From IMG/VR virus record IMGVR_UViG_3300033143_003083, positions 1 to 64,000 of that record: DNA of 64,000 nt; one strand, written 5' to 3'. The position numbers were made by a program, and so were the translations under genes. The notes beneath the pieces are model-generated. The model saw nothing but the letters and a program-made list of their open reading frames with translations, had not been told where the DNA came from and ran no database searches. The stretch comes from a virus. Below are positions 13,598 through 59,473 of this stretch, one piece after another (within the stretch, counting starts at the first letter, position 1; each line of letters opens with the position of its first letter).

Positions 13598-13852
13598 TTA
13601 TAATTTATTCATCAGCATAAGACTTTCACCCAGTTCAGATATCTTTATATGATTACGTTCAGAGCATAGTTGTTGGGTGATAACCTGTGTTGAATCACCT
13701 AACGTCATTCCAATATCATCAGCAGTAACATAAACGATATACCCTGACTCCAAATGACTATACCATAACAAAACATTAGTTTTATAAGAATTACCAAGGT
13801 CAAACGCTTTGTTCAGATCAACAGTACTCCAAAAATCTAAGAAGTCTTTCAT
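13598..13852 (-). CDS. Small hypothetical protein (ends MNKL)
   Basis: ATGA-coupled start. Confidence 0.6.
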   Translation of the reverse strand: MKDFLDFWSTVDLNKAFDLGNSYKTNVLLWYSHLESGYIVYVTADDIGMTLGDSTQVITQQLCSERNHIKISELGESLMLMNKL

Positions 13853-14085
13853 AACATCCACCACTCATGCAAGTGTTCATTCTCAACAATGTAATTCCAT
13901 GCGTCTTCATACGTAGTATAACTTCTGCGGCCTGATGGTGGTATCTTATGTTCCCTTATGAATTCAACTAAAATAGCTGCCCCACCATGATAATTTAGTT
14001 TACTAAAAACATTAGGGAACAGGTGCTCATTAAGTTTGGGGTATTGCCTCTCCACTTTTTCATGAAAATCTATACTCTTATTCAC
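13849..14085 (-). CDS. YPEL/WWML family protein
   Basis: YPKL..HLF...W.YI..NEHLHEWWML. Confidence 0.75.
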   Translation of the reverse strand: MNKSIDFHEKVERQYPKLNEHLFPNVFSKLNYHGGAAILVEFIREHKIPPSGRRSYTTYEDAWNYIVENEHLHEWWML

Positions 14086-14318
14086 AACATCCACCAGATA
14101 TGTTTGTCTTCGTTGTCACAGATGTATTTCCATATAATTTCATACGTTAAATTATCTTTGGTTGGACAATTGCATTGGTGATTCACAAAATCAAGTACTA
14201 ACGACAAGTTTTCAAAGGTATCATCTAATACATAAGAGTACCCTGCAAAAATGTGGTCATGCAATTCAGGGTAATAATCATACACTAATGATTTAAAATG
14301 GTCTAAATCTTTAATCAA
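14082..14318 (-). CDS. YPEL/WWML family protein
   Basis: YYPELHDHIF...IWKYICDNEDKHIWWML. Confidence 0.75.
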   Translation of the reverse strand: MIKDLDHFKSLVYDYYPELHDHIFAGYSYVLDDTFENLSLVLDFVNHQCNCPTKDNLTYEIIWKYICDNEDKHIWWML

Positions 14319-14319
14319 C

Positions 14320-14484
14320 TTACTTACCTGTTATTTTCTCATACTGGTCAACAACATCAAAGAATAAATCATATGCGGCATCACCGGACGTGTCAGCAGC
14401 TTCACGTGCTTCTTTCGAACTCCCCCATTGATCTACCCATTCCATAGTTTTATCAAACCATTCAATTTTTTCTTCGTCTGTCAT
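14320..14484 (-). CDS. Small hypothetical protein, 54 aa (not in ORF track)
   Basis: MTDEEKIEWFDK...EKITGK; GGTGA SD. Confidence 0.55.
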   Translation of the reverse strand: MTDEEKIEWFDKTMEWVDQWGSSKEAREAADTSGDAAYDLFFDVVDQYEKITGK

Positions 14485-14491
14485 ATATCAC

Positions 14492-14722
14492 CTATAATTC
14501 ATCAAATAATTGTATACTGAGTTCAGCTTCAACCCTGTCATGAATTTCTTGTGCAGTACCTGCAATCGTCTTAAAGATCATTGTATTTTTTGCATATGAG
14601 TACACAGTACCCCCAACCCCACGAGTAAATTCAATGATGTTATAATTGCTGCCACCCACACTGTCAGTAATAATATACTTTTTGTGCTGGTCATCTATAA
14701 TTATTGGTTTGCCCAGACTCAT
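14492..14722 (-). CDS. Small hypothetical protein (paralog of 14722..14982; ends FDEL)
   Basis: Shared TDS..G..Y.I.E and AQ..HD..E. Confidence 0.65.
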   Translation of the reverse strand: MSLGKPIIIDDQHKKYIITDSVGGSNYNIIEFTRGVGGTVYSYAKNTMIFKTIAGTAQEIHDRVEAELSIQLFDEL

Positions 14723-14982
14723 TATAATTTTCTCATTAGACGTTTAGCATAAGTTTTTTCTATTTCATCATGTAGGAATTGTGCTGAATCATTACATTGT
14801 CTCATATAATTACCTTTGAGATCATATGCAACCCAATAATTATAAGGTAATATTAAAGGTGTTATCTTAAAATTACCTTTATACTCACGTTCGACAATTT
14901 CATAATCATGACCGGCAAAACTATCTGTTACCTTATGATAGATTTTGCCCTTACGATGTTTAATTCGTCTGCCTAACATCAT
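14722..14982 (-). CDS. Small hypothetical protein (ends MRKL)
   Basis: Paralog of neighbour; ATGA-coupled start. Confidence 0.65.
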   Translation of the reverse strand: MMLGRRIKHRKGKIYHKVTDSFAGHDYEIVEREYKGNFKITPLILPYNYWVAYDLKGNYMRQCNDSAQFLHDEIEKTYAKRLMRKL

Positions 14983-15209
14983 AACTCCAATGTGATAAAA
15001 ACTGATGTGGGGGCAAATATTACCTTGCCACAATTTGACCATGTTGCTAATTCTCTTACGACTGATACCGGACGGTCTTCAGCAACATTCTTCCTGAAAT
15101 GATTACAGTATGATAACCATATGTCCCACACACAAAATGTAGCAGACATACTGGAATCACTGACTATACCACACATACCCAGACCATTAACTGAGATTGA
15201 ATTTCTCAT
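14979..15209 (-). CDS. Small hypothetical protein (ends TLEL)
   Basis: GGAAGGA SD; coupled to next gene. Confidence 0.55.
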   Translation of the reverse strand: MRNSISVNGLGMCGIVSDSSMSATFCVWDIWLSYCNHFRKNVAEDRPVSVVRELATWSNCGKVIFAPTSVFITLEL

Positions 15210-15342
15210 TATCCTTCCTCTCAATTTCGTCTAAACGGTCAGCAATACACTTCATCAGTACCGATTTGGTCACAGGGTTCTGAGTATAGTGGTAATCGCG
15301 GAATAAGTCACCTAATGTTGCTGGATTTGCGTCCTTACTCAT
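15187..15342 (-). CDS. Small hypothetical protein, 51 aa (not in ORF track)
   Basis: MSKDANPATLG...; ATGA overlap with upstream stop. Confidence 0.5.
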   Translation of the reverse strand: MSKDANPATLGDLFRDYHYTQNPVTKSVLMKCIADRLDEIERKDNEKFNLS

Positions 15343-15683
15343 AACTCACCCCATTCTTCATAAGCATCATAAAAAGCATATGCAAGTTCTGTAAATTTGA
15401 ATTCAACAAAATAAACGGTTCTTTTAGGTTTAAGTTTTCTCCCACCGACACACTCAAATCTACCCTTAGTAGTTCTTTCATAGACATGAACATCAGACAA
15501 ACACGAACCTGTACTAATATGAATAATTTCATCTGTGTGATTCATTTTAACGTTGTTTTCAAAACCATTTGCATTAGTTTTCGTCATATAGATTCTGAAC
15601 TTATTAGGTTCAATGACTGTGACACTCTTAGATGCATCACGGTCATGCATGAATTCACATAATTTACCAAGATAATTACTCAT
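15339..15683 (-). CDS. Hypothetical protein (ends WGEL)
   Basis: ATGA-coupled start. Confidence 0.6.
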   Translation of the reverse strand: MSNYLGKLCEFMHDRDASKSVTVIEPNKFRIYMTKTNANGFENNVKMNHTDEIIHISTGSCLSDVHVYERTTKGRFECVGGRKLKPKRTVYFVEFKFTELAYAFYDAYEEWGEL

Positions 15684-15904
15684 AACATCCACCATTCATG
15701 TAGATCTTCATTGTCATTAATATACTGCCAGATAGTTTCGGGTGTGGTAAGATGCATCATATTGTTTTTCTTCAAAAATATTCTGAGTGCTGTGAATTCT
15801 AATACATTATTATCAAATATATGATTATAAAGTTCAGGATAATAGCGGCGCATATTAATCATTATATCACCGACACCAATAACATGTTTACCCTTATATC
15901 TCAT
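15680..15904 (-). CDS. YPEL/WWML family protein
   Basis: YYPELYNHIF...NEDLHEWWML. Confidence 0.8.
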   Translation of the reverse strand: MRYKGKHVIGVGDIMINMRRYYPELYNHIFDNNVLEFTALRIFLKKNNMMHLTTPETIWQYINDNEDLHEWWML

Positions 15905-16143
15905 AACATCCACCATGCATGTAAGTCTTCGTTATCTCTAATATATTGCCATATCTCAACATACTCGTTACCTGAATGTAGTGAGATACCTGATTTTAAT
16001 CTTGTCTTCTTCATAAAGATTGTAAGTGATGTATATGGGGTACGACCTTCACCATATACATATATATAAAGTTCTGGATAATAATGTTTCATATTATTCA
16101 GTAAAGAAGTCATGGTAAGAACGGAGCCATCATCAAATGTCAT
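15901..16143 (-). CDS. YPEL/WWML family protein
   Basis: YYPELY...NEDLHAWWML. Confidence 0.8.
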   Translation of the reverse strand: MTFDDGSVLTMTSLLNNMKHYYPELYIYVYGEGRTPYTSLTIFMKKTRLKSGISLHSGNEYVEIWQYIRDNEDLHAWWML

Positions 16144-16361
16144 AACATCCACCAATCGTGTAATTCTCTGTTGCACCTGATATGATCCCATATAGCTTCA
16201 ACTGAGGTAAGATGTATTATATTGTTTTTCTTCAAAAAAATTCTGAGTGCAGTATGAGGCAGATCATCATTATCGAATATATGAGTATAAAGTTCAGGAT
16301 AAAATGATTTTATACTATCCATTAACCCTCTTAGATGTATCACATGTTCGCCATTACTCAT
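16140..16361 (-). CDS. YPEL/WWML family protein
   Basis: FYPELYTHIF...ELHDWWML. Confidence 0.8.
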   Translation of the reverse strand: MSNGEHVIHLRGLMDSIKSFYPELYTHIFDNDDLPHTALRIFLKKNNIIHLTSVEAIWDHIRCNRELHDWWML

Positions 16362-16591
16362 AACATCCACCAATCATGCTTATCTTTATTCACAACAATG
16401 AAATCCCAGATTTCTTGGTAATCCCATACCGACACCTTACCATCACCATGACTACTGATAAAGATGATAAGCGAGTCGTAAGGGTCATTACGACCACCAA
16501 ATATGTATTTGTAAAGTTCTGGGTAATAATATTTCATACTATGTTTCAGTTCATCCATAATACGGACTGAAGATGATGGTATTCTACTCAT
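16358..16591 (-). CDS. YPEL/WWML family protein
   Basis: YYPELYKYIF...DKHDWWML. Confidence 0.8.
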   Translation of the reverse strand: MSRIPSSSVRIMDELKHSMKYYYPELYKYIFGGRNDPYDSLIIFISSHGDGKVSVWDYQEIWDFIVVNKDKHDWWML

Positions 16592-16821
16592 AACATCCAC
16601 CAATCATGCATATCTTCCTTTGCAACAATGTACGCCCATATTTCATTATAAGACAACCTATTAATATCATATGATATCTTATTCATAAAGATATCAAGTG
16701 CTTCATATGAGGCAGCATACCCAAAGAACACATGAGCATGAAGGTCAGGATAATAACGTGCCATATTATGCTTCAGGGCATTCACTGAGAAAATAGGCGC
16801 AGGATGCTTCGTATCATTCAT
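16588..16821 (-). CDS. YPEL/WWML family protein
   Basis: YYPDLHAHVF...DMHDWWML. Confidence 0.8.
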   Translation of the reverse strand: MNDTKHPAPIFSVNALKHNMARYYPDLHAHVFFGYAASYEALDIFMNKISYDINRLSYNEIWAYIVAKEDMHDWWML

Positions 16822-17209: not shown

Positions 17210-17284
17210 TGGAAGGTGTGGGGGGATTCGAACCCCCATGCAACGGATTTGCAATCCGCGACCTAGCCGTTCGGTCACACACCT
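17210..17284 (-). tRNA. tRNA-Cys(GCA)
   Basis: Cloverleaf AGGTGTG/CACACCT, GCGGA-TTGCAAA-TCCGT, GGGGG-TTCGAAT-CCCCC, U73, encoded CCA. Confidence 0.95.
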
Positions 17285-17486
17285 ATAATTTTATAATAAT
17301 TAGTAACATAATAAAAAATGACATTCCGAATATTAATGATCCAATCATTGCTAATGTTGTCATACTATTATCATTTTTGATTAGTTTGTATACTACCGCA
17401 AGTCCAATTCCATAGACAGTACCACTGAATAATCCAGCTAATACCATTGATTGAAATATTATTAATAAAATCATACTATTCTCCAA
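17283..17486 (-). CDS. Small membrane protein (2 TM)
   Basis: Two hydrophobic stretches. Confidence 0.5.
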   Translation of the reverse strand: MENSMILLIIFQSMVLAGLFSGTVYGIGLAVVYKLIKNDNSMTTLAMIGSLIFGMSFFIMLLIIIKL

Positions 17487-17489: not shown

Positions 17490-17840
17490 TTATAATAATT
17501 TAGCAATACTGTCAGAGAACACTTTCATTGCTTTCAATACAACATCACGTTCTTCTTCGTCTGGCATTGCTGCTGTTGGGTCTTCCATGAATTCACGCAC
17601 ACCCTGTGCAATTGTAGTCAGTGGTGAATCGAATAATGATTTTGTCTCAGCAGCACTTATTGCTTCATTGAAGCATTTAACGCGGGTAGCTGCCACACTT
17701 AATTTATGATGCACTTCAGGTAAATTATCAGTCCAATTACCCGTTACGTGTGATGCTGCATCTTGTACTTTAATAACAAGAGCATCACGTTCAGCAGCAG
17801 CCTCATTACGCATTTTTGTAAGCAAAGTTAAAGTTGTCAT
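17490..17840 (-). CDS. Hypothetical early protein
   Basis: First gene after sigma70 promoter; GGAG SD. Confidence 0.65.
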   Translation of the reverse strand: MTTLTLLTKMRNEAAAERDALVIKVQDAASHVTGNWTDNLPEVHHKLSVAATRVKCFNEAISAAETKSLFDSPLTTIAQGVREFMEDPTAAMPDEEERDVVLKAMKVFSDSIAKLL

Positions 17841-17929: not shown

Positions 17930-18640
17930 ATGAATTTACTACAATTATTCGAAAATGTCCAAAATGTCAATCTGGATCAGCTATACCGGAAATTTAACCA
18001 GAAATACTTCAATGGTCAGTTACCAGTGGTCAAAACAAAATGGTCTAATAAGCGTAGGTCAATGGGGGCAGTAGTTGCCAACAGAGTCAAAGCAACTGGG
18101 GTAATATCAATCAAACATCTGGAAATTTCCAAGCATCTTGATATTGACGAAGAAAAATTGAGTGCATTAATGTTACATGAAATGATTCATGTGTATGTGT
18201 TATTCGTATTACAACTGAGTGAACGTAGTGGGGGTCACGGTACAGAGTTCCATAAGAAACGGGGAGAACTTAATCGTAAGACTCCATTTGTGATTCCTGC
18301 ATCTGAAGATTATAATGAGTTTGAGGTATCACCCCATATAAAAATTAAACCTACTGTGATCATTCTCAGAACAGGTAGTGGTGGTACATGGGTACATGCC
18401 ATATCAGAAAAAGGATTCCAGAAAGATTTCGAAAAGATTATTGGACGATTTGTTCAAGAACATGAATATGAAGTTTTTGTGTCTGCTGCAAGTAATATTA
18501 CTAAGATACCTGTTGCACGTGTGCTCACAAAAAAAGGTATGCCGTATTATAGAATGAATGATAAAGAAATACAGTTAATCAGGGACGGTATGACCAAGAT
18601 GATTGTTAAAATAGACAAGAACGGAAATATATCATCATGA
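17930..18640 (+). CDS. SprT-like zinc metalloprotease
   Basis: FNQKYFNG.LP, HEMIH, HG.EF. Confidence 0.8.
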   Translation: MNLLQLFENVQNVNLDQLYRKFNQKYFNGQLPVVKTKWSNKRRSMGAVVANRVKATGVISIKHLEISKHLDIDEEKLSALMLHEMIHVYVLFVLQLSERSGGHGTEFHKKRGELNRKTPFVIPASEDYNEFEVSPHIKIKPTVIILRTGSGGTWVHAISEKGFQKDFEKIIGRFVQEHEYEVFVSAASNITKIPVARVLTKKGMPYYRMNDKEIQLIRDGMTKMIVKIDKNGNISS

Positions 18641-19032
18641 AACTTAGTCATATAAAACAACCGGATCTGTTCGGTATTCAGACAAAACCTATGTCAATAG
18701 TAGGGGTATATGACCGGATGATCCTGAGAGTCATCGAACCAACGAATAAGAGCGCATTTAAGCAAGATTGCACATGTCATAAGCTGAGTATCAACTATAT
18801 CGTTAAACACGCCAAACCTTCTGACAGACTCGTTATGGTGGGGGTAGGTAATACTGTTACTCATAGCTTCGTGGTAAATATAAGTGGGAAGATAATTGCT
18901 GATACTAATATAAGTAATGATCCGACTTATGATGGAAAGACTTATACAGTGGGTAAGGATAAGTTTAAGCACATGTGGAATAAAACAGCACGTGATATCG
19001 CCAGAGATATTAAAGAGATATTAGTTAAATGA
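18637..19032 (+). CDS. Hypothetical, possible Cys-His-Asp papain/transglutaminase-like fold
   Basis: CH...HSFV...D pattern like neighbour 19029. Confidence 0.35.
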   Translation: MKLSHIKQPDLFGIQTKPMSIVGVYDRMILRVIEPTNKSAFKQDCTCHKLSINYIVKHAKPSDRLVMVGVGNTVTHSFVVNISGKIIADTNISNDPTYDGKTYTVGKDKFKHMWNKTARDIARDIKEILVK

Positions 19033-19448
19033 AGTTAGAACAATTATTAGAAAGTGCAAGTAAAAATATGATTAAGGCTGCGGCAAACGTCACTGAAAAA
19101 TTATTAAAGATTGGTGGTGAGCGTGTTGTCAGGCCAGAAGAAGATGAAGACATCGTATTAATGTCCCAGAAAGGAAAGTTGTGGAAGCATAAGGCAACTA
19201 AATTGGATGGTGTACCATATAACGACTGCCACCGTGTTACCGCAAATGTATGTCAGGTAAATAAAAGATTTAGCGCAATAACGGGTTTTGCATTATCAAA
19301 GGATGGGTTATGGAGGCCACATTCTTTTATGTTTGATACTGTTGATAAATCAATACTAGAACCTACTCCAATCATACGTGTTAAATATTGGGGGGTCTTA
19401 ATGAGTGGTAAAGATGCTGAACGATTTATAAAGAGTAACGCCAGATGA
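19029..19448 (+). CDS. Possible papain/transglutaminase-like protein
   Basis: NDCH...GFAL...W.PHSF...ILEPT. Confidence 0.45.
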   Translation: MKLEQLLESASKNMIKAAANVTEKLLKIGGERVVRPEEDEDIVLMSQKGKLWKHKATKLDGVPYNDCHRVTANVCQVNKRFSAITGFALSKDGLWRPHSFMFDTVDKSILEPTPIIRVKYWGVLMSGKDAERFIKSNAR

Positions 19449-19765
19449 AGTTAGAACAATTATTTGAATCCCGCCAGAAACAATACGGCAGACCATTACC
19501 GGAAACTGGATATCAATATAAGAAGGTAGAAATTTTCAGAGCACTTGATGCTAATGAAGATTACTTCCTGCCAGAAGATTATGTGACCCGTCTGAAGAAG
19601 TTTGCAGTGGGTCATGCTGATCATAACGTTGTTGTACTGGAAACCCCTCAGAAAGTTATCAGGGCAATTGTGAATGCGTCTGATGTATATGAAGCAACGA
19701 ATGCAGGTGAATACTTTTATGATGGTAAGAAAGTAAAGGGACGAGTAATTTATGAAACTGATTAA
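19445..19765 (+). CDS. Possible ADP-ribosyltransferase-fold protein
   Basis: IFRA...DYVT...FA..HA...V.ASDV...EYFY. Confidence 0.45.
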   Translation: MKLEQLFESRQKQYGRPLPETGYQYKKVEIFRALDANEDYFLPEDYVTRLKKFAVGHADHNVVVLETPQKVIRAIVNASDVYEATNAGEYFYDGKKVKGRVIYETD

Positions 19766-20363
19766 CCTATTCGAAAGTGCAAGTAAAAATCGTGACATGA
19801 TTGTAATTGATGTACAACCATTCTATCACAACCATCACAAACATATCGTCCCAAGATTAATCGAACATGTGAATCAGATGACAGGTGATGTCTTATGGTT
19901 TCATAATGGTTGTAATGTGGGGATTGAAGATACGGTACATGAACAAAAAATGTACCTGCTTGAAAATGGAATGGACGAAGATAGATTAGACGAAATAACA
20001 TTTGTAGAAAAAGATTATGCATTTTTCAGAGGTTGGATGGATAATGGTATTGATGAAGATATTATTATTGCTGCTGGTAAATACATGTACAAGAATCGTA
20101 TTAATGACAGTCGTGATTTGGAAGTAGAAGATTTTGTGAAATTCTTACCCAGACCCGAACGTGATACATTCACAGACGAAGATGAATTATATAAAAATGA
20201 AGATGCATTACATTGGCCTGACATTGATATTAATAAATTGAAAAGATACAACAACGCTTACTTAGTAGGTGGTGGCAGGGATGAATGTCTTGAAGAAATG
20301 AGATTACTTCTGGAAATGGTTGGGATGAAGTACAAATTATTAAATGAGTTTATATACGGATGA
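19752..20363 (+). CDS. Cysteine-hydrolase/isochorismatase-like protein
   Basis: VIDVQP...EK...GGGRDECL. Confidence 0.55.
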   Translation: MKLINLFESASKNRDMIVIDVQPFYHNHHKHIVPRLIEHVNQMTGDVLWFHNGCNVGIEDTVHEQKMYLLENGMDEDRLDEITFVEKDYAFFRGWMDNGIDEDIIIAAGKYMYKNRINDSRDLEVEDFVKFLPRPERDTFTDEDELYKNEDALHWPDIDINKLKRYNNAYLVGGGRDECLEEMRLLLEMVGMKYKLLNEFIYG

Positions 20364-21964
20364 AGTTAATACAATTATTAGAGCAACTTGAATGGTTATT
20401 TGAAAATCGTAAGATTGAACTGATTGCCAAGAAGCAAGGCCAGAAGATTATGAAAGCGCATGGACGTGATCGTACTCATGATCAGCGACTTATTGATTCT
20501 ATCTTTGGTATGACTCCCATTGTACATCGTGGTGGGGCGAAAGGTGGTGATGAATTAGTACAAGACAGTGCCAAGAAAATTATTGAATTCTTCCAAACTA
20601 AAATTCATAAGAAGTATGTCCAATGGATTGCCAACCGTTACATGAACCGAGAATTCCAATTGGAAGATTGGAAAACTATTAAGGACAACCTGAAAGATTT
20701 CGACCGTATTAAAAATAAATTATCTGTTAAAGATATCAATCAATACGACTCTATGGTTGCCTTGGATAACGCCATTGATTCCCTGAAAGATAAAGATGTC
20801 AGATCCAACAAACAAAAAGATAAAGAAGAACGTGCTCAATTATTCAAAGATAAAGAAGCTATCCTTTTCTATAAAGATTCTGATATTAAGATTGAGATAC
20901 CCAAGACTGAAGAAGCTGCATGTGTTCTGGGTAAGGGTACTCGCTGGTGTACATCAGCACGTAATCATAATCAGTTCGCCAATTATAACAGAGAGGGTGA
21001 TCTATATATCATCACCACCAAAGACGGCAAGAAGTTCCAATTCCATTTACATACTAAGCAGTTCATGGATGAAGCAGACCACGAAATTAAGATGACTGAA
21101 GTACTTGAAGAATATCCTTCAATCCTTAAAGCAATACCAAAACTTGTTGACAGTTTGTCTATGTTCGACAGGGCAAATATAAATGATATGAGTCAGAATG
21201 AAGTTGAAGGTATGATTAAGGAATGGATTGATGACGGATTACACCAGATTGATATGCATGATGATACCACTGTAGTCATTGAATCATACCAAGACTTAGA
21301 TAAATTCTTTCGCCAATATGATTTCATGGAATTGTCCAGTATGCTTTATTACATAGATGACCCAAGTACGTTAGAAGAAGAAATGGATACTGACAAAGCT
21401 AGAATGGACATTTCGAAATATCTTAATCAATCTATTATTGATTTGATACATGACCGATTATTAGATCAACCTCAACATGAATTATTTGATATTAACACCA
21501 ATGACAAGGTATTCAATGCATTAAACAATTATACAACACTATCAAGACAGATCCTGAATGAAATTGTTGAAAATATGACTGAGGAATCAGCAGAAGCAAT
21601 GGAAAAATATCTTAAGGATGGTATGGAAGGTGAAGGATTCGATCATGGTGTCATGGGATTCTTATTTGATACTGAACGTTCCCACTCAAGCGGATATTTA
21701 CTTGTAACTGACGAGGCCAGAAATTTTTACGACAGTACTTATTCGATGTCAATGGAGTTATACGAACTTGCAACTAACTTAACTGAAACTGGATGGGATG
21801 ATATATCAGATGATGAATTTGAACATGAAATGAGAAGATTCTTCGGTGAAGAATTTGACCATAACCCAGATTTAAAATCCCCAAGTGATTTCTATCATAC
21901 TCAGAACATGGATAATCTTGAAAATAGAATAGAAAGGGTTATGAAAGAGTGGAAAGGGTTATGA
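20360..21964 (+). CDS. PcfJ-like domain protein, paralog of 10727
   Basis: PKTEEAACVLGKGTRWCTSA. Confidence 0.55.
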   Translation: MKLIQLLEQLEWLFENRKIELIAKKQGQKIMKAHGRDRTHDQRLIDSIFGMTPIVHRGGAKGGDELVQDSAKKIIEFFQTKIHKKYVQWIANRYMNREFQLEDWKTIKDNLKDFDRIKNKLSVKDINQYDSMVALDNAIDSLKDKDVRSNKQKDKEERAQLFKDKEAILFYKDSDIKIEIPKTEEAACVLGKGTRWCTSARNHNQFANYNREGDLYIITTKDGKKFQFHLHTKQFMDEADHEIKMTEVLEEYPSILKAIPKLVDSLSMFDRANINDMSQNEVEGMIKEWIDDGLHQIDMHDDTTVVIESYQDLDKFFRQYDFMELSSMLYYIDDPSTLEEEMDTDKARMDISKYLNQSIIDLIHDRLLDQPQHELFDINTNDKVFNALNNYTTLSRQILNEIVENMTEESAEAMEKYLKDGMEGEGFDHGVMGFLFDTERSHSSGYLLVTDEARNFYDSTYSMSMELYELATNLTETGWDDISDDEFEHEMRRFFGEEFDHNPDLKSPSDFYHTQNMDNLENRIERVMKEWKGL

Positions 21965-22437
21965 AATTATCCCAATTCTTACAAGAAGCTATAAGAAATC
22001 GTACCCTAATCAAAGGACAGCCCCTCTCAGGCGATTACTCCCATTACATACGTAGTATTACCGAGTTAAAAGACCTTCTTAAAGAGCATTACGGCAATTC
22101 TAAGATGACTTTAGACAATATTATCAAACTTTATGCTGAACATGACATGAAACTCACTGATAATTTGCTTGAATTTGAGTTTACCGTTAAGGAACTTGAT
22201 AAGTACAAGGAATGGAAGCGTACCAGAAACGATTCTAACCTTTCCACTGACGAATGGGATGAAATGAAAGCGGATATTAAGAAAAACGGTATACGGGATT
22301 ACGGTGTGCTTGGTATGTATCAGAAAAGGAACGGTGATGTCCTTACTTATATCGGTGAAGGTAATCACAGGTTGGCAATCGCAAAAGAACTTGGCATTAA
22401 GAAGATGAAAATGCGTCTTTTTTACGGGAAAGCCTAA
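21961..22437 (+). CDS. ParB/Srx-like domain protein
   Basis: DIKKNGI...GEGNHRLAIAKELG; start MKLSQFLQE. Confidence 0.7.
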   Translation: MKLSQFLQEAIRNRTLIKGQPLSGDYSHYIRSITELKDLLKEHYGNSKMTLDNIIKLYAEHDMKLTDNLLEFEFTVKELDKYKEWKRTRNDSNLSTDEWDEMKADIKKNGIRDYGVLGMYQKRNGDVLTYIGEGNHRLAIAKELGIKKMKMRLFYGKA

Positions 22438-25320: not shown

Positions 25321-25384
25321 AATAATACCCAAAGTGTTCATAGTCCATAAATAGTATTATAAACACTCAGAGGAAAATATCAAG

Positions 25385-50407: not shown

Positions 50408-51510
50408 TCATCTTGCTCCCCTATAAACATTTCAAAATGTTTTTTGGCAAATGCTTTGTAGTCATTTACTTTACCAGTATACATGTTCATGTACAACCCC
50501 ATAAGACCATCATCCAAGTCTCTTGCCTTAATCGCATAATCTTTGCGGGTAAGATGCTTATTGGTTTCATGATACAACTCAACCGTTGCAATCATATGGT
50601 TGAATATAGGATTTACCAGTGCAATCATATCATTGATGATCTTGACTGCAACCTTATCTTCTTCGAACATTACAATGATGTCATCAATTTCTTCACCGAT
50701 AATTGCCCTGAACAATCTCTTGGGGGAATTGATTGAGTCCTTTGCTCTGTGTCGTGCCAAATACCAATCAGTCTTAATCTTAATCATCTGATCATCATCA
50801 AGTCGCAGGACATAACCTTCTATACCATTTATCTGAGGAATCTGATCAACATATCGTCCAATGTCTACTATGCCACTGATACAATCCACCACAGCATACT
50901 TTTGTATCACCGATGGATAAAGATCATGAGGCATGTACTCCCCAGTGAAGTTGTTCCTGACGTTCAGCACAACAAGACCATCATCTTCATATCCTAATAC
51001 AATACGATTGTTCGGTGATGTCCATTCAAAATTAACTGTCCAACCCTGCAACCCTAATATATAAGACTCACCACGTAACCTCTTATGATCTTCTTCTGCT
51101 AACCATTTCATAGCAGCAACTGCCTGATCAGAATCCAGACTACCTTTGGTCTTGAGTCTTACATCATTCATATGTAAATAAGTTGAGATTAAGCTACCAT
51201 CTTCCTTAACCATACAATGAGTTATTTTTGAAAAATCCACATTCTCGGTGAATGGGTTTTCTTTGTAATTGAAAAACTTAGTCATTGGTCGTGACGCAAT
51301 ATCAACGACATACCCATCACCATGAACTTCAAACATGATACCCCTACATTCAAGCGCAGAAGGTAACAAGAAATCTGAATAAGAACATAGTCGATAATTG
51401 AAGATACGAAAAATCGTACCCATCAGTACGACATCTTTAAAGAAAAATGATTCTGAACTTTCAACCAGTGCCATTAAGTCTGCGTAAATTTCAGTAAAAT
51501 GTTTACTCAT
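50404..51510 (-). CDS. RNA ligase 1 (T4 RnlA-like)
   Basis: ECRGIMF, KFFN..E, KEDGSL, EGYV, KIKT.WY...H. Confidence 0.92.
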   Translation of the reverse strand: MSKHFTEIYADLMALVESSESFFFKDVVLMGTIFRIFNYRLCSYSDFLLPSALECRGIMFEVHGDGYVVDIASRPMTKFFNYKENPFTENVDFSKITHCMVKEDGSLISTYLHMNDVRLKTKGSLDSDQAVAAMKWLAEEDHKRLRGESYILGLQGWTVNFEWTSPNNRIVLGYEDDGLVVLNVRNNFTGEYMPHDLYPSVIQKYAVVDCISGIVDIGRYVDQIPQINGIEGYVLRLDDDQMIKIKTDWYLARHRAKDSINSPKRLFRAIIGEEIDDIIVMFEEDKVAVKIINDMIALVNPIFNHMIATVELYHETNKHLTRKDYAIKARDLDDGLMGLYMNMYTGKVNDYKAFAKKHFEMFIGEQDE

Positions 51511-52005: not shown

Positions 52006-52006
52006 T

Positions 52007-52369
52007 TTATAACATCCAGAATTCATGTAAGTGTTCGTTATCAATAATGTGATTCTTTAAATCGGCTTGCCATTTTTTAAAATTATCATGGGCAAGTTCA
52101 TTCCCACCAAACCCAAAAAAGAAATCATCAGCTTTGTATTTTTCTTTACCTGCTAAAACAGAAGCAATGTAAGGATAGTATCTTTGACGATTTTCTTCTT
52201 GGGTTTCAGTAACAATATTTTTTATACCATTGTATAGATATGGATAGGATTTTATCACACCAAACAAAGACATGACTCGCCTTAGACCATTATGAATATT
52301 ATCATCTTTCATGATAGCTTCATAAGTTTCGATGGTGATTTCTTGTGGGGGATTTTGTATAATACCCAT
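52007..52369 (-). CDS. YPEL/WWML family protein
   Basis: SYPYLY...HIIDNEHLHEFWML. Confidence 0.7.
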   Translation of the reverse strand: MGIIQNPPQEITIETYEAIMKDDNIHNGLRRVMSLFGVIKSYPYLYNGIKNIVTETQEENRQRYYPYIASVLAGKEKYKADDFFFGFGGNELAHDNFKKWQADLKNHIIDNEHLHEFWML

Positions 52370-52611
52370 TACAGTATCCACCATGCTAACATATGTTCAT
52401 TTTTTTGAATGTGTTTGATGATACCATCAAAGGTATTAACACCATCATACCCAATAGTTTTTTTCAAAAAGGTACGTATTGATCTAGACCCTTTAGGTCT
52501 TGATTTATCGTTAATAATATACACGTACAATGTAGGCCAACGTAATTCTATATGGTCAAAGATGTGCCAAATGTAATCGGCATCATCCATAATTTTATCT
52601 GCTTCACTCAC
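52369..52611 (-). CDS. YPEL/WWML family protein
   Basis: WPTLY...HIQKNEHMLAWWIL. Confidence 0.7.
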   Translation of the reverse strand: MSEADKIMDDADYIWHIFDHIELRWPTLYVYIINDKSRPKGSRSIRTFLKKTIGYDGVNTFDGIIKHIQKNEHMLAWWIL

Positions 52612-52665: not shown

Positions 52666-53952
52666 TTATGCAGCTTCTTTCTCAGTCATGAATAACACTT
52701 CACCGTTATCCAACTTAAGATCCTGATTACCAGAAGATGTCACGATGACAATACATTGAACGTCCTCTACTTCATCATCAAGTGCTGCTTCTGGGATATA
52801 CCCATCAGTAATGATAATGCATACAGCAGGTTCTTCTTCCTTCTCGTTAGCATATTCAAGCATCGGTGACATTTCAGTACCACCACCACCAACCAAGTCA
52901 GTATTAATAGAACCAAATTCATCACCTTCTTCTGAACTGTACTCACCAATCAGGTGAGCATTAGTATCACATGAGATAAGATCAACGTTCCAGTTATCAA
53001 ATTCTTCACAGATGCTGTGTAACTCAGTTAACGCTTCTGCTAAGTCTGTGTTAGACATTGAACCTGATGTGTCCACACCAAATACCAATTCAATGTTATC
53101 GCCTGTCATAGTAGGGAAGATGATACGTGAATGGTAAGACTTACGCGAAGGACGGTTATATGTATAACGGTTCTTTGAAGTCTGTGTGATGAATTCACGT
53201 AACACAGTCTGCCAAGGAATCTTACTGTCAAGCAAGTCTTCGAACTGGCGAATCAAATCAGCATAACCTTCGCCCATGTTCTTCATTTTTTCCATGTCGT
53301 TCTGACCCATAGCAGATGCAATCTTCTGACGATTCTCAGTACGTTGAGCATCAGTCATTGATTCGCGGCTTAATGCATCATAAGGACATTGACCATCTTT
53401 GTTTGGTTCACCGGCACTACCAAATTTACTTGCTGCCTTTTTAGCATCATTATCATTTTCTTTAAGTAAGATATGATAGATTTGATCGGCACTCATTTTT
53501 TTGTACTTTTCCTCATACAAACCAATCTTGGGCATAGCAATACGTGATTCTTTTAACTCTGTTAAATATGAGTTAATACAGAAGTCAGTACAAACATTCC
53601 ACAACTCATGGTTGTAATTATGGTCTGTCTGTCTGCCGATATGTTCAAGGAAGATATGAAGCATTTCATGTGCAATAACAAACGCACGTTCTTTACGATT
53701 CATACCATTAAGGAATTCTTCATTCACATAAATTTTGTTTCCACCAACAGTAGTTGCTGCCATTGTCGGAAGATCTTTTGTGAAGTAATATTCAGTTGAC
53801 ATAATTAAGAAACTGAAGAATGGGAAGATTCTTACTAAGTCAATTTTAGAAGTGGTAAGGTTAGATTTACTTTTGGCAGAAAAGTTTTTAACTGTACTCG
53901 GCAATCTGCCGCGTAACTGTTCTGACATTTCATTTTTCGTTTCTTCTGACAT
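52666..53952 (-). CDS. Zincin metallopeptidase-like + vWA domain protein (DUF2201-type)
   Basis: HEMLH..EH, DTSGSM, GGGT, ITDG. Confidence 0.85.
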   Translation of the reverse strand: MSEETKNEMSEQLRGRLPSTVKNFSAKSKSNLTTSKIDLVRIFPFFSFLIMSTEYYFTKDLPTMAATTVGGNKIYVNEEFLNGMNRKERAFVIAHEMLHIFLEHIGRQTDHNYNHELWNVCTDFCINSYLTELKESRIAMPKIGLYEEKYKKMSADQIYHILLKENDNDAKKAASKFGSAGEPNKDGQCPYDALSRESMTDAQRTENRQKIASAMGQNDMEKMKNMGEGYADLIRQFEDLLDSKIPWQTVLREFITQTSKNRYTYNRPSRKSYHSRIIFPTMTGDNIELVFGVDTSGSMSNTDLAEALTELHSICEEFDNWNVDLISCDTNAHLIGEYSSEEGDEFGSINTDLVGGGGTEMSPMLEYANEKEEEPAVCIIITDGYIPEAALDDEVEDVQCIVIVTSSGNQDLKLDNGEVLFMTEKEAA

Positions 53953-54024: not shown

Positions 54025-55149
54025 TTACGCCTCAACGTCACCTTGTTTGATGTAATCAGAAACTTTCTTGAAAGTAGTCATAGTATTCATAAGGATACTA
54101 GTGATTGCCTTATCAGACTGTTCATTCTTACGACCATCAAAAAGAGTCTTAACAGTTTTGTAAGTCATGATTAAGAAATCATCTTCAAGTTGAACCATGA
54201 TTTTTTCAAGGTTCTTAACTTTCTTAACATCAGTTGCATTCTCAACAAGGTTAACAATCAAACTTGAAACCAATGCGAATACTACACCGTTGTCATGTTG
54301 TGGAACTTTATAGTCTAGTTCACCTGACATGATTTTCTGGAAGTCTGGTAATACACCATAGAACTTACGGAAAGACATGAATGAAGATGCAACTTTATCA
54401 CCGACACAACCACCAATAACATGTGCTAATTCTTCGTCATTGTAACCAACCTCAAGAAGATTACCGACTTGTTCCCATGAACGTGGTGTAGCAAAAGATA
54501 CATCATTACGTTTAGGGTCGAAGTTATAAAGCATTGATGCATCAAAGTTTAAGAAACCAATAACTTGTTTATTCAAACCAGTGTCAAATGCATAGACAGT
54601 GAAATCAGTTAAGTTAGATTTGATTTCAAGATGCATTGCATAACGATTAGCCAATGCAGGTGCAACACCTTTAGCACCTGTTTTATCTGATTTCATGTTA
54701 CCAGCAGATACGATTGCCCAACCTTCAGCAAGTTCAACACCACGATGGATTTCACGATCAAGTACTATACGGTATGCTGAATGTTGTACTGGAACTGGTG
54801 CGTTACTCATTTCGTCCATAAACAAGATACCCTGTTCAGGGAACAGACCTGCTTTAACACGTTCTTTTGAAGGAAACCATTCTGGCACAGAAACTTTCAT
54901 CGTTTCATGTTCATCATTTTCAGAACGTCCCACGTATGGAATACCAGCAACATCTGCTTGTTCCATTTGTGCCAGACGAACATCTTCAAAACCAATATTA
55001 AGTTCCTTGGTTACTTGTCTGATGATTGCTGATTTGCCGATACCCGGCGAACTATGCATATAGATAGGCATATGAACGCCATGTTCGAGTTCGTGTAGAA
55101 CTGCTTTGATTACATACTGCTTTGCTGCACTAATTGTAGTAGTAGGCAT
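54025..55149 (-). CDS. MoxR-like AAA+ ATPase
   Basis: SPGIGKS, DVRL, LFMDE, AGN, ALANR, TPRSW. Confidence 0.88.
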   Translation of the reverse strand: MPTTTISAAKQYVIKAVLHELEHGVHMPIYMHSSPGIGKSAIIRQVTKELNIGFEDVRLAQMEQADVAGIPYVGRSENDEHETMKVSVPEWFPSKERVKAGLFPEQGILFMDEMSNAPVPVQHSAYRIVLDREIHRGVELAEGWAIVSAGNMKSDKTGAKGVAPALANRYAMHLEIKSNLTDFTVYAFDTGLNKQVIGFLNFDASMLYNFDPKRNDVSFATPRSWEQVGNLLEVGYNDEELAHVIGGCVGDKVASSFMSFRKFYGVLPDFQKIMSGELDYKVPQHDNGVVFALVSSLIVNLVENATDVKKVKNLEKIMVQLEDDFLIMTYKTVKTLFDGRKNEQSDKAITSILMNTMTTFKKVSDYIKQGDVEA

Positions 55150-55288
55150 TTTTGGTACTCCCAAAATTGTTAGAGTTAAGGTTAAGGATCATTCCCAATC
55201 CATAGGCATATAGTATTATAGATTGAGTATTCTGTCAACTCTATAAGTCATTGATTTCATTGGATTATGGAAATTGGTTAAAAAAGCA

Positions 55289-56488: not shown

Positions 56489-57190
56489 TTATTGTACTTG
56501 AGGCATTACCATGAATATGAGTTCATTTACTTCGATGTAAAGGATACCCATATCACCAACTCCAAGTTCAACCGAGTCATTGTTTTTGATAGCATGACGA
56601 AGTAATCTCATTACGCTATCTGTTCGCCAATCGTAAGACCATTCACCACTACATTGATCAGCGATCACATCGGTAAATGAATCAGAACCATCATCAAACA
56701 TTTCAATGACTGTTTCGTTATTTATGCCTGTTATAGAAAGTATGTTTGAGTTCATTGCCTGATTAGCTTTGATTAAGTTTGTGATGTATTCTTTTGTTAA
56801 TGTTATAACATTATTAACAGCATCATCAATAGTACCAGACGGAACATTTATAGTTTGTGGATTGGCAAAGGTGAATGAAACTTTCTTTCTGCTTTCTTTG
56901 AATGTCACAGACTTGACATAATCTTCTACTTCAACCTGTGACACTTTTGTTTTACTCAAATCAAATAGATTCATTCTGCCGAGCATCACTGGTACACGTG
57001 TGATACCCATAGTGGTGTCAACTATGTTACTGTCAACTTCTGATACTAAAACGATGGACGGTCTTTCTTCATCACTGGTACTGTCAGCACCACGAATCAC
57101 TACCCCGTCTTCTTTCTTTTCAATAATAATTTCTTTGATGCCAGCAACATTAATAGTTTCTAACACGCTATGTAAACGTTCGATGTTCAT
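56489..57190 (-). CDS. Sliding clamp, T4 gp45-like
   Basis: 233 aa, replication context, C-terminal F.VMP pattern. Confidence 0.6.
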   Translation of the reverse strand: MNIERLHSVLETINVAGIKEIIIEKKEDGVVIRGADSTSDEERPSIVLVSEVDSNIVDTTMGITRVPVMLGRMNLFDLSKTKVSQVEVEDYVKSVTFKESRKKVSFTFANPQTINVPSGTIDDAVNNVITLTKEYITNLIKANQAMNSNILSITGINNETVIEMFDDGSDSFTDVIADQCSGEWSYDWRTDSVMRLLRHAIKNNDSVELGVGDMGILYIEVNELIFMVMPQVQ

Positions 57191-57204
57191 TGTGGTTTCC
57201 TCTT

Positions 57205-57660
57205 TTATAACTTCTTAAATTCTTCGTGTGCTTCTAACAGTTGAAGAATGTTATTATAACTTTTTCTATTACATGCATCAACATTATTGGTTTCATCTGT
57301 AGAATATATTAACTGCCTAAGACAACGTAAATCTTTTTTTACAATAGTTGAGTCTTGGTTGTTATATCTGTCCAACCAATCTTGTGCCTCATTGTATACA
57401 TTTATAATAGTTGATGCATTTTCATCATTGAACTTACATCCTTCTATATATTCTGCTATGTCTCTCCATGAACTACCTGAATTCAATCTATCACATATGA
57501 TGCAATCTTTTAAAACTTCATCATCAAGAAATTTACTAAAATCGTTTACGTATTCAATCACCATTTTATAATGAAAAAACTTATCGACATGAGAATCATA
57601 TGGCATACTTATATACCACGATCCATCACGTCTGTGCCGTACACTAAAGTTATAACTCAC
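57205..57660 (-). CDS. Hypothetical protein (ends FKKL)
   Basis: 151-aa ORF. Confidence 0.55.
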   Translation of the reverse strand: MSYNFSVRHRRDGSWYISMPYDSHVDKFFHYKMVIEYVNDFSKFLDDEVLKDCIICDRLNSGSSWRDIAEYIEGCKFNDENASTIINVYNEAQDWLDRYNNQDSTIVKKDLRCLRQLIYSTDETNNVDACNRKSYNNILQLLEAHEEFKKL

Positions 57661-58198
57661 CAGTAGTTAACTCATAAAACTTTTCCAGAAATTTCATTTC
57701 TGCGTCTTGGGGTGTCATACATTCAAGTTCGATGTCAGGTAACGGTGTTGTTATTATTTTGTTTATTGCCCAACCCTCACCTTTAGAATGCATCAACCGT
57801 TTTATCTCAATTCGTAATGCATTCATATCAGCAAGATGAACTTCTTCTGGGAAGGGTTCGGTTAACTCATATTTGGTGTAGATGGCATTCATCACTTTAC
57901 ATTCCATCATTTTATAATTTTGAAGGAATGGTTTGATTGGGCTTGCCACATCAGTCAGATATGCTTCACTTGCATCATGTAGTAACCCATACAACTTAAA
58001 TTCATCTGGGCATAACTCAGTGACTAACAAGCAATGTTCTGCTATAGAATAAAACTCAGAACAATGTCCTGTATAACGGCATTGCATTGATAACGAATGT
58101 GCAATGTCAGTTATGTTAATTTGTTCAGAAATTGGGTTCAAAAAATCAAACTTGATGCCACTGTATGTTTCAATGTAATTATCTATTTTGTTGTCCAT
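57650..58198 (-). CDS. HD-domain phosphohydrolase (YfbR/YfdR-like)
   Basis: DIAHSLS..CRY.GH, YS.AEH, LLHDASEAY..D. Confidence 0.85.
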   Translation of the reverse strand: MDNKIDNYIETYSGIKFDFLNPISEQINITDIAHSLSMQCRYTGHCSEFYSIAEHCLLVTELCPDEFKLYGLLHDASEAYLTDVASPIKPFLQNYKMMECKVMNAIYTKYELTEPFPEEVHLADMNALRIEIKRLMHSKGEGWAINKIITTPLPDIELECMTPQDAEMKFLEKFYELTTGEL

Positions 58199-58205
58199 AA
58201 TATAC

Positions 58206-59087
58206 CTAATATTTTAGTAAAGATGAAGTTAATGCATTCTGTCTGGACTTCCGGTCATAACCGATAGGAGTCAAAAATATATTAACTTTCTTCAACACGG
58301 TGTTCCATTGTGATTTCCAATCAACTTCAAGTTGGTCTATGAAGTCGGGTAACACTTCTGCATCAACAGGAACAGCAATATACTTAAACGTTGGATGGTT
58401 AAGGTACACAATACGCACCTTGTCACCAGACATAATTTTAGTATCACTTGAACCACACAAAGAGTTATAATTCATAGACGCTCTTACGTGGTAGGGGAAT
58501 CCTTTCATATTCTTGGCACTTTCGTACTTCACTTCATACTTCTTCAAACTCTTAACTGCTTTTGGATTTCCAATATCAAGGAAAGACATATCATGATATT
58601 CTTCTTCAAAGGTGTCAACAAATATTTTCACTTCTTCGTAACTTTTTTTATCCATTAACAATTCAACAAGATCCGTCAACATACTTTGTATAATTTTAGG
58701 TGTGTCTGATTTCTTAATGGCAACACCCATGATCTTCAGCTTATCAACTTCAACACCTTCCATGTCAACCAGATGCATCACATACATCTTCTTACCAAGG
58801 AAGTATGCTTTGTCTGCTACTGCTTCTCTGTCTGTTTGTATCACACGTGAACGATTCCAATCAGAGTTAAACACGTCCTTCATGAATTGGGGGAATGCAT
58901 CATTTGCTTCCTTACCAATCATATCAGCAAACTCAATAACTTCTTTCTTGTCTGCATCTTTATCAAACTTACACGATAGATCTATGTAAGCTGAATCGGT
59001 ATCACCTGCTATGATGTGTTTAGGGTGGTATTTGATATACTCATTGATAACCCCCGTAAACACAAATGTATTAAAATTCTTACTCAT
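58206..59087 (-). CDS. Family B DNA polymerase, C-terminal subunit (motif C, thumb)
   Basis: GDTDS, KK.Y, K.MG..KKSDTP, HVRA. Confidence 0.9.
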   Translation of the reverse strand: MSKNFNTFVFTGVINEYIKYHPKHIIAGDTDSAYIDLSCKFDKDADKKEVIEFADMIGKEANDAFPQFMKDVFNSDWNRSRVIQTDREAVADKAYFLGKKMYVMHLVDMEGVEVDKLKIMGVAIKKSDTPKIIQSMLTDLVELLMDKKSYEEVKIFVDTFEEEYHDMSFLDIGNPKAVKSLKKYEVKYESAKNMKGFPYHVRASMNYNSLCGSSDTKIMSGDKVRIVYLNHPTFKYIAVPVDAEVLPDFIDQLEVDWKSQWNTVLKKVNIFLTPIGYDRKSRQNALTSSLLKY

Positions 59088-59271
59088 TCTTATCCACTAT
59101 TAATTGTATTTCTTCTGCTAACGTATCAGCATGATTCACTAAGTCTATCATATCAGAATTACTTTCAGTCAGATCAAGATTTCGATGCATCTTAATAAAC
59201 ACTCTGCGTAAATTTTTGATATGAGCACTTATCGTAATTTTACTCAATCTATAATTCCTTATAACTATCAA
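59080..59271 (-). CDS. Small hypothetical protein between polymerase halves
   Basis: 63-aa ORF; start uncertain. Confidence 0.4.
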   Translation of the reverse strand: MIVIRNYRLSKITISAHIKNLRRVFIKMHRNLDLTESNSDMIDLVNHADTLAEEIQLIVDKNE

Positions 59272-59473
59272 TCATAGTTATTATGTCATGACCTGCTTCG
59301 GTCAACTCATACAGTCCATCATTGAATACCACTAACCCATCTTCCATCAGTACCATCATGTATTCCAGATCAGATGATGCCAACATAAAATCACCAAAAT
59401 ATAATTTAGAATGTGGTTGTGTCATTGCTTTATGACATTTGTACAACCACACATGTGAGTTGTTAAAAATCAT
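59249..59473 (-). CDS. Winged-helix-like small protein between polymerase halves
   Basis: DGLV...YELTEAG...YKEL; ATGA-coupled to polymerase stop. Confidence 0.65.
   Translation of the reverse strand: MIFNNSHVWLYKCHKAMTQPHSKLYFGDFMLASSDLEYMMVLMEDGLVVFNDGLYELTEAGHDIITMIDSYKEL

Follow-up and report, generated by a model that had tools for sequence, protein, structure and literature searches.

Why should dozens of small phage proteins, from families with no evident similarity to one another, all stop on the same amino acid? The question is raised by the first 64 kb (hereafter the window) of the virus record IMGVR_UViG_3300033143_003083, which is 77,172 bp long and has a guanine-cytosine (GC) content of 36%. 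An initial annotation of the window had pointed to about 50 short minus-strand open reading frames (ORFs) ending in hydrophobic-x-x-Leu, about 36 of them with Phe, Tyr or Trp at position -4 (the last residue being -1). We found 55 small Leu-ended proteins, 35 of them aromatic at -4, and confirm that the observation is real. Considering its conservation and its distribution among relatives, we see an even chance that small accessory proteins carry the ending, (Ala)-hydrophobic-x-x-Leu-COOH, as a lineage-specific C-terminal recognition signal for a putative reader protein.

The gene set was built by codon-usage scoring, with seven obvious ORFs dropped by a greedy step added by hand. Of the resulting 144 genes in the 77-kb record, 63 ended in Leu. 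The excess was concentrated on the minus strand between 13,598 and 59,503, where Leu ended 57 of 96 genes, namely 55 of the 78 proteins of up to 170 residues (~70%) vs only 2 of the 18 larger ones. Elsewhere, 1 of 15 plus-strand genes and 5 of the remaining 33 minus-strand genes were Leu-ended. As a baseline, 7.9% of all residues are Leu, and 10.7% of the stop codons outside genes follow a Leu codon. Of 2,084 small ORFs in 157 other viral loci, 9.2% were Leu-ended (aromatic-x-x-Leu, 1.1%); a PExxL ending was absent from these loci. In 14 other phage records, Leu ended 113 of 1,599 genes (7.1%). Among the 55 small Leu-ended proteins, position -4 was hydrophobic in 87% and position -7 in 69%, so that hydrophobic residues recur at -1, -4 and -7. 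Two internal controls proposed at the outset also held: helicase, Dam, nrdA, nrdB, thyX, RNA ligase and the single-stranded DNA-binding protein (SSB) end without Leu, and eight plus-strand genes coupled to their neighbor by an ATGA overlap end in R, K, K, S, K, R, G and L. A genome-wide count of C-terminal residues thus bears out the excess, which extends beyond the window.

Much of the signal comes from families, which we defined by iterating hidden Markov models (HMMs); two further pairs, E and F, were grouped by eye. All members lie on the minus strand, and 39 of the 57 Leu-ended genes were counted in four tandem families. Family A (YPEL...WWML, 12 members) forms an array in which every member ends in WWML (13849-14094, 14082-14318, 15680-15916, 15901-16191, 16140-16373, 16358-16603, and 16588-16821). 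Divergent members were assigned by HMM (E-values 1e-19 to 1e-23) at 38465-38719 (KLLL), 38707-38991 (FWLL), and 38979-39251 (FWLL), and two more lie beside a peptidase-vWA gene at 52007-52384 (FWML, TTA TAA) and 52369-52611 (WWIL, CTG TAA). Family B (AVDxDG...LIKL, seven members; 22778-23029, 23026-23307, 23304-23579, 23576-23839, 24516-24788, and 25048-25341) includes the sole member of families A-D without a terminal Leu, which ends in LIKI (ATA TGA) at 27613-27843. The 11 members of family C (...TELGxxxLxFxxL) are partly interleaved with family B (23841-24098, 24095-24295, 24292-24519, and 24785-25117). Others were assigned by HMM at 26400-26624 (FSKL), 26621-26836 (GELL), 26833-27060 (FANL), and 41966-42169 (FSEL, TTA TAA), and further members stand at 13598-13864 (MNKL, TTA TAA), where the minus-strand block ends convergent with a plus-strand gene, and at 47902-48150 (FDKL, TTA TAA), alone between nrdA and a Pnkp-like gene. 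A family C-like gene (59249-59503, YKEL, TTA TAG) lies between the halves of a split DNA polymerase. The nine members of family D combine dissimilar bodies with the ending GMSxEEIxxYxxL (26248-26403, 27057-27440, 27437-27616, 28393-28623, 28620-28889, 28886-29131, 29128-29367, 29357-29614, and 29611-29859). Pair E comprises 14492-14722 (FDEL, TTA TAG) and 14722-15042 (MRKL, TTA TAA), which hhalign found unrelated to families A-D; pair F comprises 41006-41311 (FLQL, CTT TAG) and 41308-41655 (FAYL, TTA TGA).

Paralogy inflates the Leu count but does not create the effect. After the most conservative family collapse (HMM plus our own grouping), 18 of 40 small units were still Leu-ended, as were 12 of 33 true singletons. 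When proteins were clustered by BLAST with their tails cut off, 37 of 58 units were Leu-ended (p = 4e-22 vs an expectation of 0.107). The families also appear to be distinct. With the last five residues removed, hhalign gave a probability below 1% between any two of families A-D, and no more than 2.3% when Leu-ending singletons or pairs were compared with these families, within a sensitivity limited by small, shallow alignments. The claim of at least four families without evident similarity therefore stands, in that profiles without tails show none. AlphaFold2 models are consistent with this. Family A is predicted to be all-alpha, with its last helix at residues 88-94 of 96 and a tail predicted local distance difference test (pLDDT) score of about 85. 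Family C is modeled as alpha-beta-beta-alpha-beta-beta-alpha, with the last helix at 74-83 of 85 and a tail pLDDT of 71-88. As modeled, the two have different folds. Foldseek returned no significant match in the PDB for either model, and sequence searches of the PDB gave only chance or repeat matches plus a weak MarR-type match for family C (E = 0.23). In Pfam and PHROG searches the representatives were orphans, except for a deoxynucleoside monophosphate (dNMP) phosphatase. A search with two array-flanking proteins found nothing, and a look-up of sequencing runs gave no entry for the array region.

What the family members keep is the last residue. Only the terminal Leu and I84 are invariant in the family A alignment (A1), and only M1 and the terminal Leu in that of family D (A3). 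Within the window, family C fully conserves the terminal Leu, likewise two Gly; in family B, Leu ends six of seven members, and in families A-D together 38 of 39. Queried with family C, a word-indexed protein search gave nothing beyond proteins of this phage itself. A full HMM search, covering 1.84 billion representative proteins, added about 20 family C members, from related phages, and every small one of them ends in [F/Y/M]-x-x-L. In the resulting alignment (A5; 27 sequences, mean identity 21%), M1, G57, and the terminal Leu are the only invariant positions. None of the 27 sequences runs past the Leu, and two register-shifted members (YGELL and YAELL) are still Leu-ended. A more distant homologue with two repeats, P0143 (196 residues), has LNALRI after LTERGKEV, and its chain continues beyond.

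To place these proteins in a wider context, we turned to relatives of the phage. The window encodes T4-type replication and nucleotide genes (a split family-B polymerase, a gp45-like clamp, and a gp32-like SSB), together with a DnaB-like helicase, nrdA/B, thyX, Dam, Rnl1 and the Pnkp-like enzyme, and a MoxR ATPase with a zincin-vWA protein. No close relative was found by blastn against the phage collection. The nearest accessible ones are two short IMG/VR contigs, L001 and L002/L082, whose polymerases are 68% and 80% identical to that of the window. More distant relatives are phages of 147-158 kb, and one is estimated to be 43% complete, so the record is probably a fragment of a larger T4-like genome. 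We compared 17 further phage records whole, namely three of these relatives (G001, 147 kb, GC 43%; G003, 158 kb, GC 51%; G004, 149 kb, GC 46%) and 14 others. In this comparison Leu ended 41% of the genes of the present record, 28% in G001, 22% in G003 and 20% in G004, vs 4-12% in the other 14 records (p ≤ 2e-8 for each of the four Leu-rich phages vs the pooled remainder). The trait is thus shared by three divergent relatives.

Pooling the genes revealed how sharply the signal is confined to the terminus. Leu ended 26.7% of 748 genes in the four Leu-rich phages vs 7.1% of 1,599 in the 14 others, and in the Leu-rich phages it occupied only 6-12% of each of the twelve preceding positions. Hydrophobic-x-x-Leu exactly at the terminus occurred in 15.0% of genes vs 2.4% in the other phages, and was at baseline at all other offsets. 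Terminal I, V, and F were not enriched in the Leu-rich phages and were, if anything, lower; M and W differed slightly. Ala at -5 was enriched in all four (31% of Leu-ended proteins vs 5% in other phages), and the full A-hydrophobic-x-x-L-COOH ending was found 42 times in the 748 genes vs twice in the 1,599.

Each genome has its own version of the tail. G003 favors A-[L/M/I]-[E/D]-x-L, and G001 either A-L-[Y/W]-x-L or Y-K-A-x-x-x-L. Position -4 is aromatic in 61% of the Leu-ended proteins of this phage vs 2-5% in G001, G003, and G004, where it is aliphatic. The aromatic -4 recurs in at least five unrelated groups of this phage; it is found in families A, C, and D, in pairs E and F, and in a number of singletons. 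Families A-D are not common to the three relatives and this phage. A genome-specific version shared by unrelated families is what a co-evolving reader protein would produce. At closer range, the L001/L082 orthologues of ORFs 57205, 42171, 64182, 66451, and 69571 keep the Leu while adjoining residues change; ORF 55289 changes F to L and ORF 67939 loses its Leu. Genes of L082 without a homologue in the window also end in IYNL and MYEL.

Could the ending reflect DNA or translation rather than protein? Under such an explanation, translation of tightly packed genes would terminate and restart best at TTATGA (or YTATRR), or with a Leu codon occupying the ribosomal P-site. In its favor, 35 of the 63 Leu-ended genes stop at TGA (20 at TAA, 8 at TAG), and 28 of 56 in the automatic gene set before hand additions have the ATGA overlap. 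Across the four Leu-rich phages, Leu ends 54% of ATGA-coupled vs 19% of other genes, and a residual bias at the DNA level is visible at uncoupled ends, where TTA makes up 60% of terminal Leu codons vs 36% internally. However, coupled genes of other phages are Leu-ended in only 11% of cases, and the plus-strand coupled genes of this same phage mostly end in K, R, S, or G. The 19% among uncoupled genes itself compares with 6.4% in the other phages. Three of the four block-terminal minus-strand genes are Leu-ended (13598, TTA; 22778, CTG TGA; 26248, CTT TAA); these lack a downstream partner for coupling. Genes separated from the next one by a spacer likewise still end in Leu, with CTG, CTT, or TTG. 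The linked residues at -4 and -5 are, moreover, protein features.

Codon usage leads to the same point. The terminal Leu is written as TTA 46 times, CTA 7, CTT 4, TTG 4, and CTG 2, so that TTG, CTT or CTG stand at 10 ends, and TAA or TAG stops follow in 28 of the 63. In G003, 20 of 39 terminal Leu codons are CTG/CTC and 14 are TTA/CTA, against internal shares of 2% for TTA and 4% for CTA; TTA and CTA are the only Leu codons compatible with the ATGA overlap, which is present in 12 of the Leu-ended genes of G003. Within families, synonymous sites of conserved tail residues differ between paralogues (TTC/TTT, TAC/TAT, and four Gly codons), and the terminal Leu of family D is encoded by CTT, TTA, TTG, and CTA. 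It follows that the tails are old and kept by protein-level selection, with no recent gene conversion. Five Leu codons, three stops, and scrambled synonymous sites thus support the view, already put forward in the initial annotation, that the ending is selected at the protein level and not at the DNA level, and the excess survives a control for coupling. We consider an origin in translation or DNA very improbable. Stop-codon reassignment was also rejected, as all three stops are in use and neighboring genes lie in other frames.

Common descent is a further explanation: the tails could stem from one very old superfamily, or from a mobile end-module passed on by 3' end exchange through recombination at gene junctions. 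Family D, with its dissimilar bodies on one conserved 15-residue end, looks like such a module, and the junction GGTGGATGTTATGA recurs in the WWML array. The Ala at -5 is common to all four phages. A singleton at 27840-28118 (-), within the family D stretch, ends in EYMAMLKL and resembles tails of G001 (AYAALYKL and VAYIALKL, 34102-34839) and G004 (AAYAEIAL, 63229); it could belong to an old family that has kept the terminal Leu across the group. However, the scrambled synonymous sites in the tails indicate no recent exchange, the predicted folds of families A and C differ, and profiles without tails show no similarity. Inheritance alone would also leave a fixed Leu amid near-total divergence unexplained. 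Taken together, shared ancestry or a mobile end is improbable.

A stronger challenge comes from protein structure. Small domains may simply end in an amphipathic helix in which Leu is the last residue to face the core. Compaction and stop/start overlaps would have trimmed the ORFs at that point, with no reader involved, and the genome-wide excess would then stem from a few lineage-specific family expansions and from paralogy too old to detect. Several observations fit. The tails lie in a confident terminal helix in the models of families A and C, the hydrophobic residues at -1, -4, and -7 are spaced as on one helix face, and the chain of P0143 continues past L-x-x-L at the matching place. The weak MarR-type match of family C is to a winged helix. 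Four tandem families hold the bulk of the cases noted above, 31 of the 55 small Leu-ended genes have an ATGA overlap, which penalizes stop loss, and the Leu of the dNMP phosphatase is not conserved.

Small helical accessory proteins are common in phages generally, yet the 14 other phage records have only 4-12% terminal Leu. Trimming also predicts terminal I, V, F, and M as well as overhangs of one or two residues, neither of which is seen. In families at 21-26% identity, L, I, V, and M normally replace one another at core positions; the terminal Leu, by contrast, persists in 38 of 39 members across families A-D and in 27 of 27 sequences of alignment A5. True singletons are still Leu-ended in 12 of 33 cases, and the explanation does not predict a genome-specific -4 residue common to unrelated families. 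It is plausible that each tail arose for structural reasons, but such an origin leaves the strict Leu, the exact stop, the lineage restriction, and the genome-wide flavor unexplained; as a full explanation without a reader, we judge it less likely than a signal, though still a serious rival.

A recognition signal would account for these remaining features. Across unrelated families and four divergent phages, the last residue is Leu and the chain stops exactly there. A residue-specific motif at the exact terminus, carried by unrelated proteins and conserved while their bodies diverge, is what characterizes C-terminal recognition signals in general. In the mechanism that we propose, the side chains at -4 and of the terminal Leu would point, together with the free carboxylate, to the same face of the last helical turn. 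One partner could read this face through a hydrophobic groove with two pockets and a site that binds the carboxylate, and the outcome might be either docking of the tailed proteins on a common hub or their joint clearance. A common reader protein for the Leu tails is plausible. A more specific version is more tentative and falls somewhat short of an even chance: this T4-like, partly jumbo, phage group would use a C-terminal address code on a fifth to two fifths of its genes, with one dedicated receptor that co-evolves with the -4 residue, to dock, localize, or clear accessory proteins together, the receptor being either a phage machine (MoxR/zincin-vWA or ClpP-like) or a host factor.

A number of findings speak against a recognition signal. 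Known docking tags and degrons are usually flexible, and the tails here are modeled, without a linker, as the last helix of a compact domain and with fair confidence (pLDDT about 71-88). Each family has its own residues before the Leu (WWM, LIK, FxE/K, and YxE), and most cases come from lineage-specific tandem families. Core proteins do not keep a terminal Leu across phages. Neither do close orthologues of the dNMP phosphatase (57650-58198 (-), TGEL), whose C-termini vary freely in length and sequence, with Leu in 4 of the 20 best-scoring entries (query plus 19 homologues); its Leu is probably not part of the phenomenon. In addition, no gene tracks the Leu trait cleanly across the phages compared, and the vWA-peptidase, one of the candidate readers, also occurs in the trait-negative phages G005 (35% identity), G019, G023, and G025-G028 (25-29%) and in three trait-negative fragments.

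Which protein might read the tails? The initial annotation had proposed a host protease or chaperone, or a phage hub such as the MoxR/vWA pair, and had also listed the sliding clamp as a possible partner. The idea of a common handle remains plausible; the clamp is an unlikely partner, and the MoxR/vWA pair is found in trait-negative phages as well. The T4-type sliding clamp (56489-57190 (-), PHROG 223) is disfavored because the polymerase and a second protein end on a separate, co-varying motif. The C-terminal half of DNA polymerase B (58206-59087 (-)) ends in SLLKY, and a 199-residue protein of the replisome module (42379-42978 (-)) ends in GLLVY. Across four phages, the polymerase and 42379-family tails change together (LLKY/LLVY, LFDF/LFKF, MFGVGA/DFFS, and LFQIG/IILW), the polymerase tails in five related phages being SLLKY, GLLVY, SLFDF, MFGVGA, and LFQIG. 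Judging from these sequences, they probably form the clamp-binding motif of this lineage.

The MoxR-type AAA+ ATPase (54025-55164 (-); PHROG 1297, Pfam AAA/bpMoxR) lies beside a zincin metallopeptidase (DUF2201_N by Pfam) fused to a vWA domain (52666-53952 (-)). The peptidase-vWA alignment (A4) has invariant H95, E96, and H99 (HExxH) and D294, S296, and S298 of the metal-ion-dependent adhesion site (MIDAS). A pair of MoxR and metallopeptidase-vWA genes has been described for group 2.2 jumbo phages (Iyer et al. 2021, PMC7824862), where it is proposed to function in assembling and processing the virion. All four Leu-rich phages have the module (vWA identity 31-100%), and four phages lack both module and trait, a co-occurrence pattern that is confounded by relatedness. 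The vWA protein of trait-negative G005 is in fact closer to that of the window than is the protein of Leu-rich G004. In 79 other phages, the 10-kb stretches flanking the vWA gene on each side showed no Leu excess, and a metagenome scan with the vWA alignment gave no relative that was more than 55% identical.

A ClpP-like serine protease (INSPGG, AAS[MA]G) is encoded in the replication module of G004 (L252:6831-7790 (+)), G003 (L266:18251-19363 (-)), and G001 (L250:11119-11859 (-)). As a trait-linked reader it was rejected, as it occurs in trait-negative fragments and was not found in this 77-kb record. The head-gene cluster of G004 lies elsewhere, with a T4-type scaffold gene and an unannotated 205-residue ORF at the usual position of the prohead protease. 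Overall, the MoxR/zincin-vWA pair and the ClpP-like protease are weak candidates for the reader, and a host factor is equally possible.

The remaining Leu-ended genes, all on the minus strand, are mostly singletons scattered through the region. The singleton in the family D stretch ends in MLKL, and others lie at 15339-15695 (WGEL), 17283-17486 (IIKL; hydrophobic, probably a membrane protein), 17490-17840 (AKLL), 30779-31123 (NVYL, CTA TGA; N-terminus like a signal peptide, by eye), 33899-34306 (FVEL), 34291-34905 (204 residues, WVLL, CTT TAA), and 34902-35282 (RNAL). A small membrane-like hydrophobic protein at 32398-32574 ends in LIDL and its paralogue at 32213-32416 in YLEA. A Cys-rich small protein at 42171-42377 ends in MAML (TTG TAA), its L001 orthologue in LEKL; that at 44186-44440 ends in KYEL, its G001 homologue in IALKL. 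Two more stand at 49824-50264 (IHKL, TTA TAG) and 50261-50407 (NIEL, CTA TGA), and the protein at 57205-57660 ends in FKKL, as does its L082 orthologue. At 41966-41971, the palindrome TTATAA supplies Leu plus stop both to the minus-strand family C gene 41966-42169 and to the ORF 41645-41971 on the plus strand, which spans precisely the gap that the minus-strand genes leave. The N- and C-halves of the split polymerase (58206-61185 (-)) are separated by two small ORFs. In L082 (1248-5516) the N-half is itself interrupted, with a 455-residue ORF without match in the gap, and the equivalent of the family C-like ORF 59249-59503 is fused in frame to the end of the N-half and ends in VYREL.

Other genes of the record are of separate interest. 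ARAGORN found tRNA-Cys(GCA) at 17210-17284 (-) and tRNA-Met(CAT) at 61960-62036 (-). A protein at 48150-49397 (-), which we read as Pnkp-like, is phosphatase-related with weak RNA-ligase and ATPase PHROG matches, and lies near an Rnl1-type RNA ligase (50404-51510 (-)); T4 pairs Pnkp with Rnl1 for tRNA repair. A TnsA-like endonuclease (29783-30295 (+)) lies on the opposite strand within the small-gene arrays and is kept at 37-53% identity in more distant phages without the Leu trait (G010 and G011; matches also in G012 and G009). Most of the 13 plus-strand genes in 8940-13597 and 17930-22788 begin M-K-L-x-x-(L/F)-(F/L)-E, the Leu of M-K-L-x-x being encoded by CTT, CTC, or TTA. They include a SprT-like protease (17930-18640) and, judged by eye, a GNAT-like protein (13232-13597), and their leader resembles the T4 capsid-targeting leader, with its cleavage site after Glu. 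Beyond the window (64001-77172), a TET-associated glycosyltransferase, a dimeric-type dUTPase, a Dda-like helicase, an Mre11-like phosphoesterase, a 5'-3' exonuclease, and an SLT lysozyme hint at hypermodified DNA.

No part of phage genomes is less well understood than their small early and accessory proteins. If half of these, throughout a lineage, share one terminal signal, dozens of orphans could be assigned to a common pathway, and a new hub or a new protease specificity could come to light in infected cells. Such a signal would also offer a portable tag for protein control during infection, and an address code of this kind would be a viral counterpart of PTS1 or ssrA. If the ending is purely structural, an extreme, lineage-wide convergence on one terminal residue would still be of interest.

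Our literature searches found no description of such Leu-ended phage tails, and no published link between the MoxR/vWA pair and C-terminal tails. The two-gene module of group 2.2 jumbo phages is the same as that found here, with catalytic and MIDAS residues intact. Among better-known systems, gp43, gp33, and gp55 of T4/RB69 carry C-terminal clamp-binding tails that are flexible, aromatic-ended, and limited to few clients. As in the present case, short hydrophobic peptides at the extreme C-terminus of unrelated phage proteins dock there on one hub; however, a handful of clients contrasts with about 55 proteins, and the polymerase of this phage has its separate SLLKY motif. The T4 capsid-targeting sequence is likewise one short terminal peptide on unrelated phage proteins for their joint handling, but it is N-terminal, cleaved, and used for packaging internal proteins, whereas the Leu tail is C-terminal and on replication-arm genes. 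It is the plus-strand leader of the window, MKLxxL[FL]E, that is of the capsid-targeting kind.

C-degrons of AAA+ proteases, such as ssrA (...YALAA-COOH), C-motif 1 of ClpX, and the non-polar tails recognized by FtsH, also use a free hydrophobic C-terminus as a portable signal on unrelated proteins. They differ in that the ssrA/ClpX signals end in Ala-Ala and are unstructured, and ssrA is added during translation, whereas the Leu tail is encoded, strict in its last residue, and modeled as helical. Its endings are K-L, E-L, M-L, and L-L rather than Ala-Ala or LAA. The eukaryotic sorting signals PTS1 (-SKL-COOH) and KDEL/HDEL serve organelle targeting, and we know of no comparable receptor or compartment in a phage-infected bacterium. 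In form, the likeness extends to an ending of three to four residues with an obligatory last Leu, carried by many unrelated proteins and read by a receptor through the free carboxylate. As in PTS1 and KDEL, -KL and -EL endings dominate among the proteins described here (FSKL, FRKL, and, four times, FDEL).

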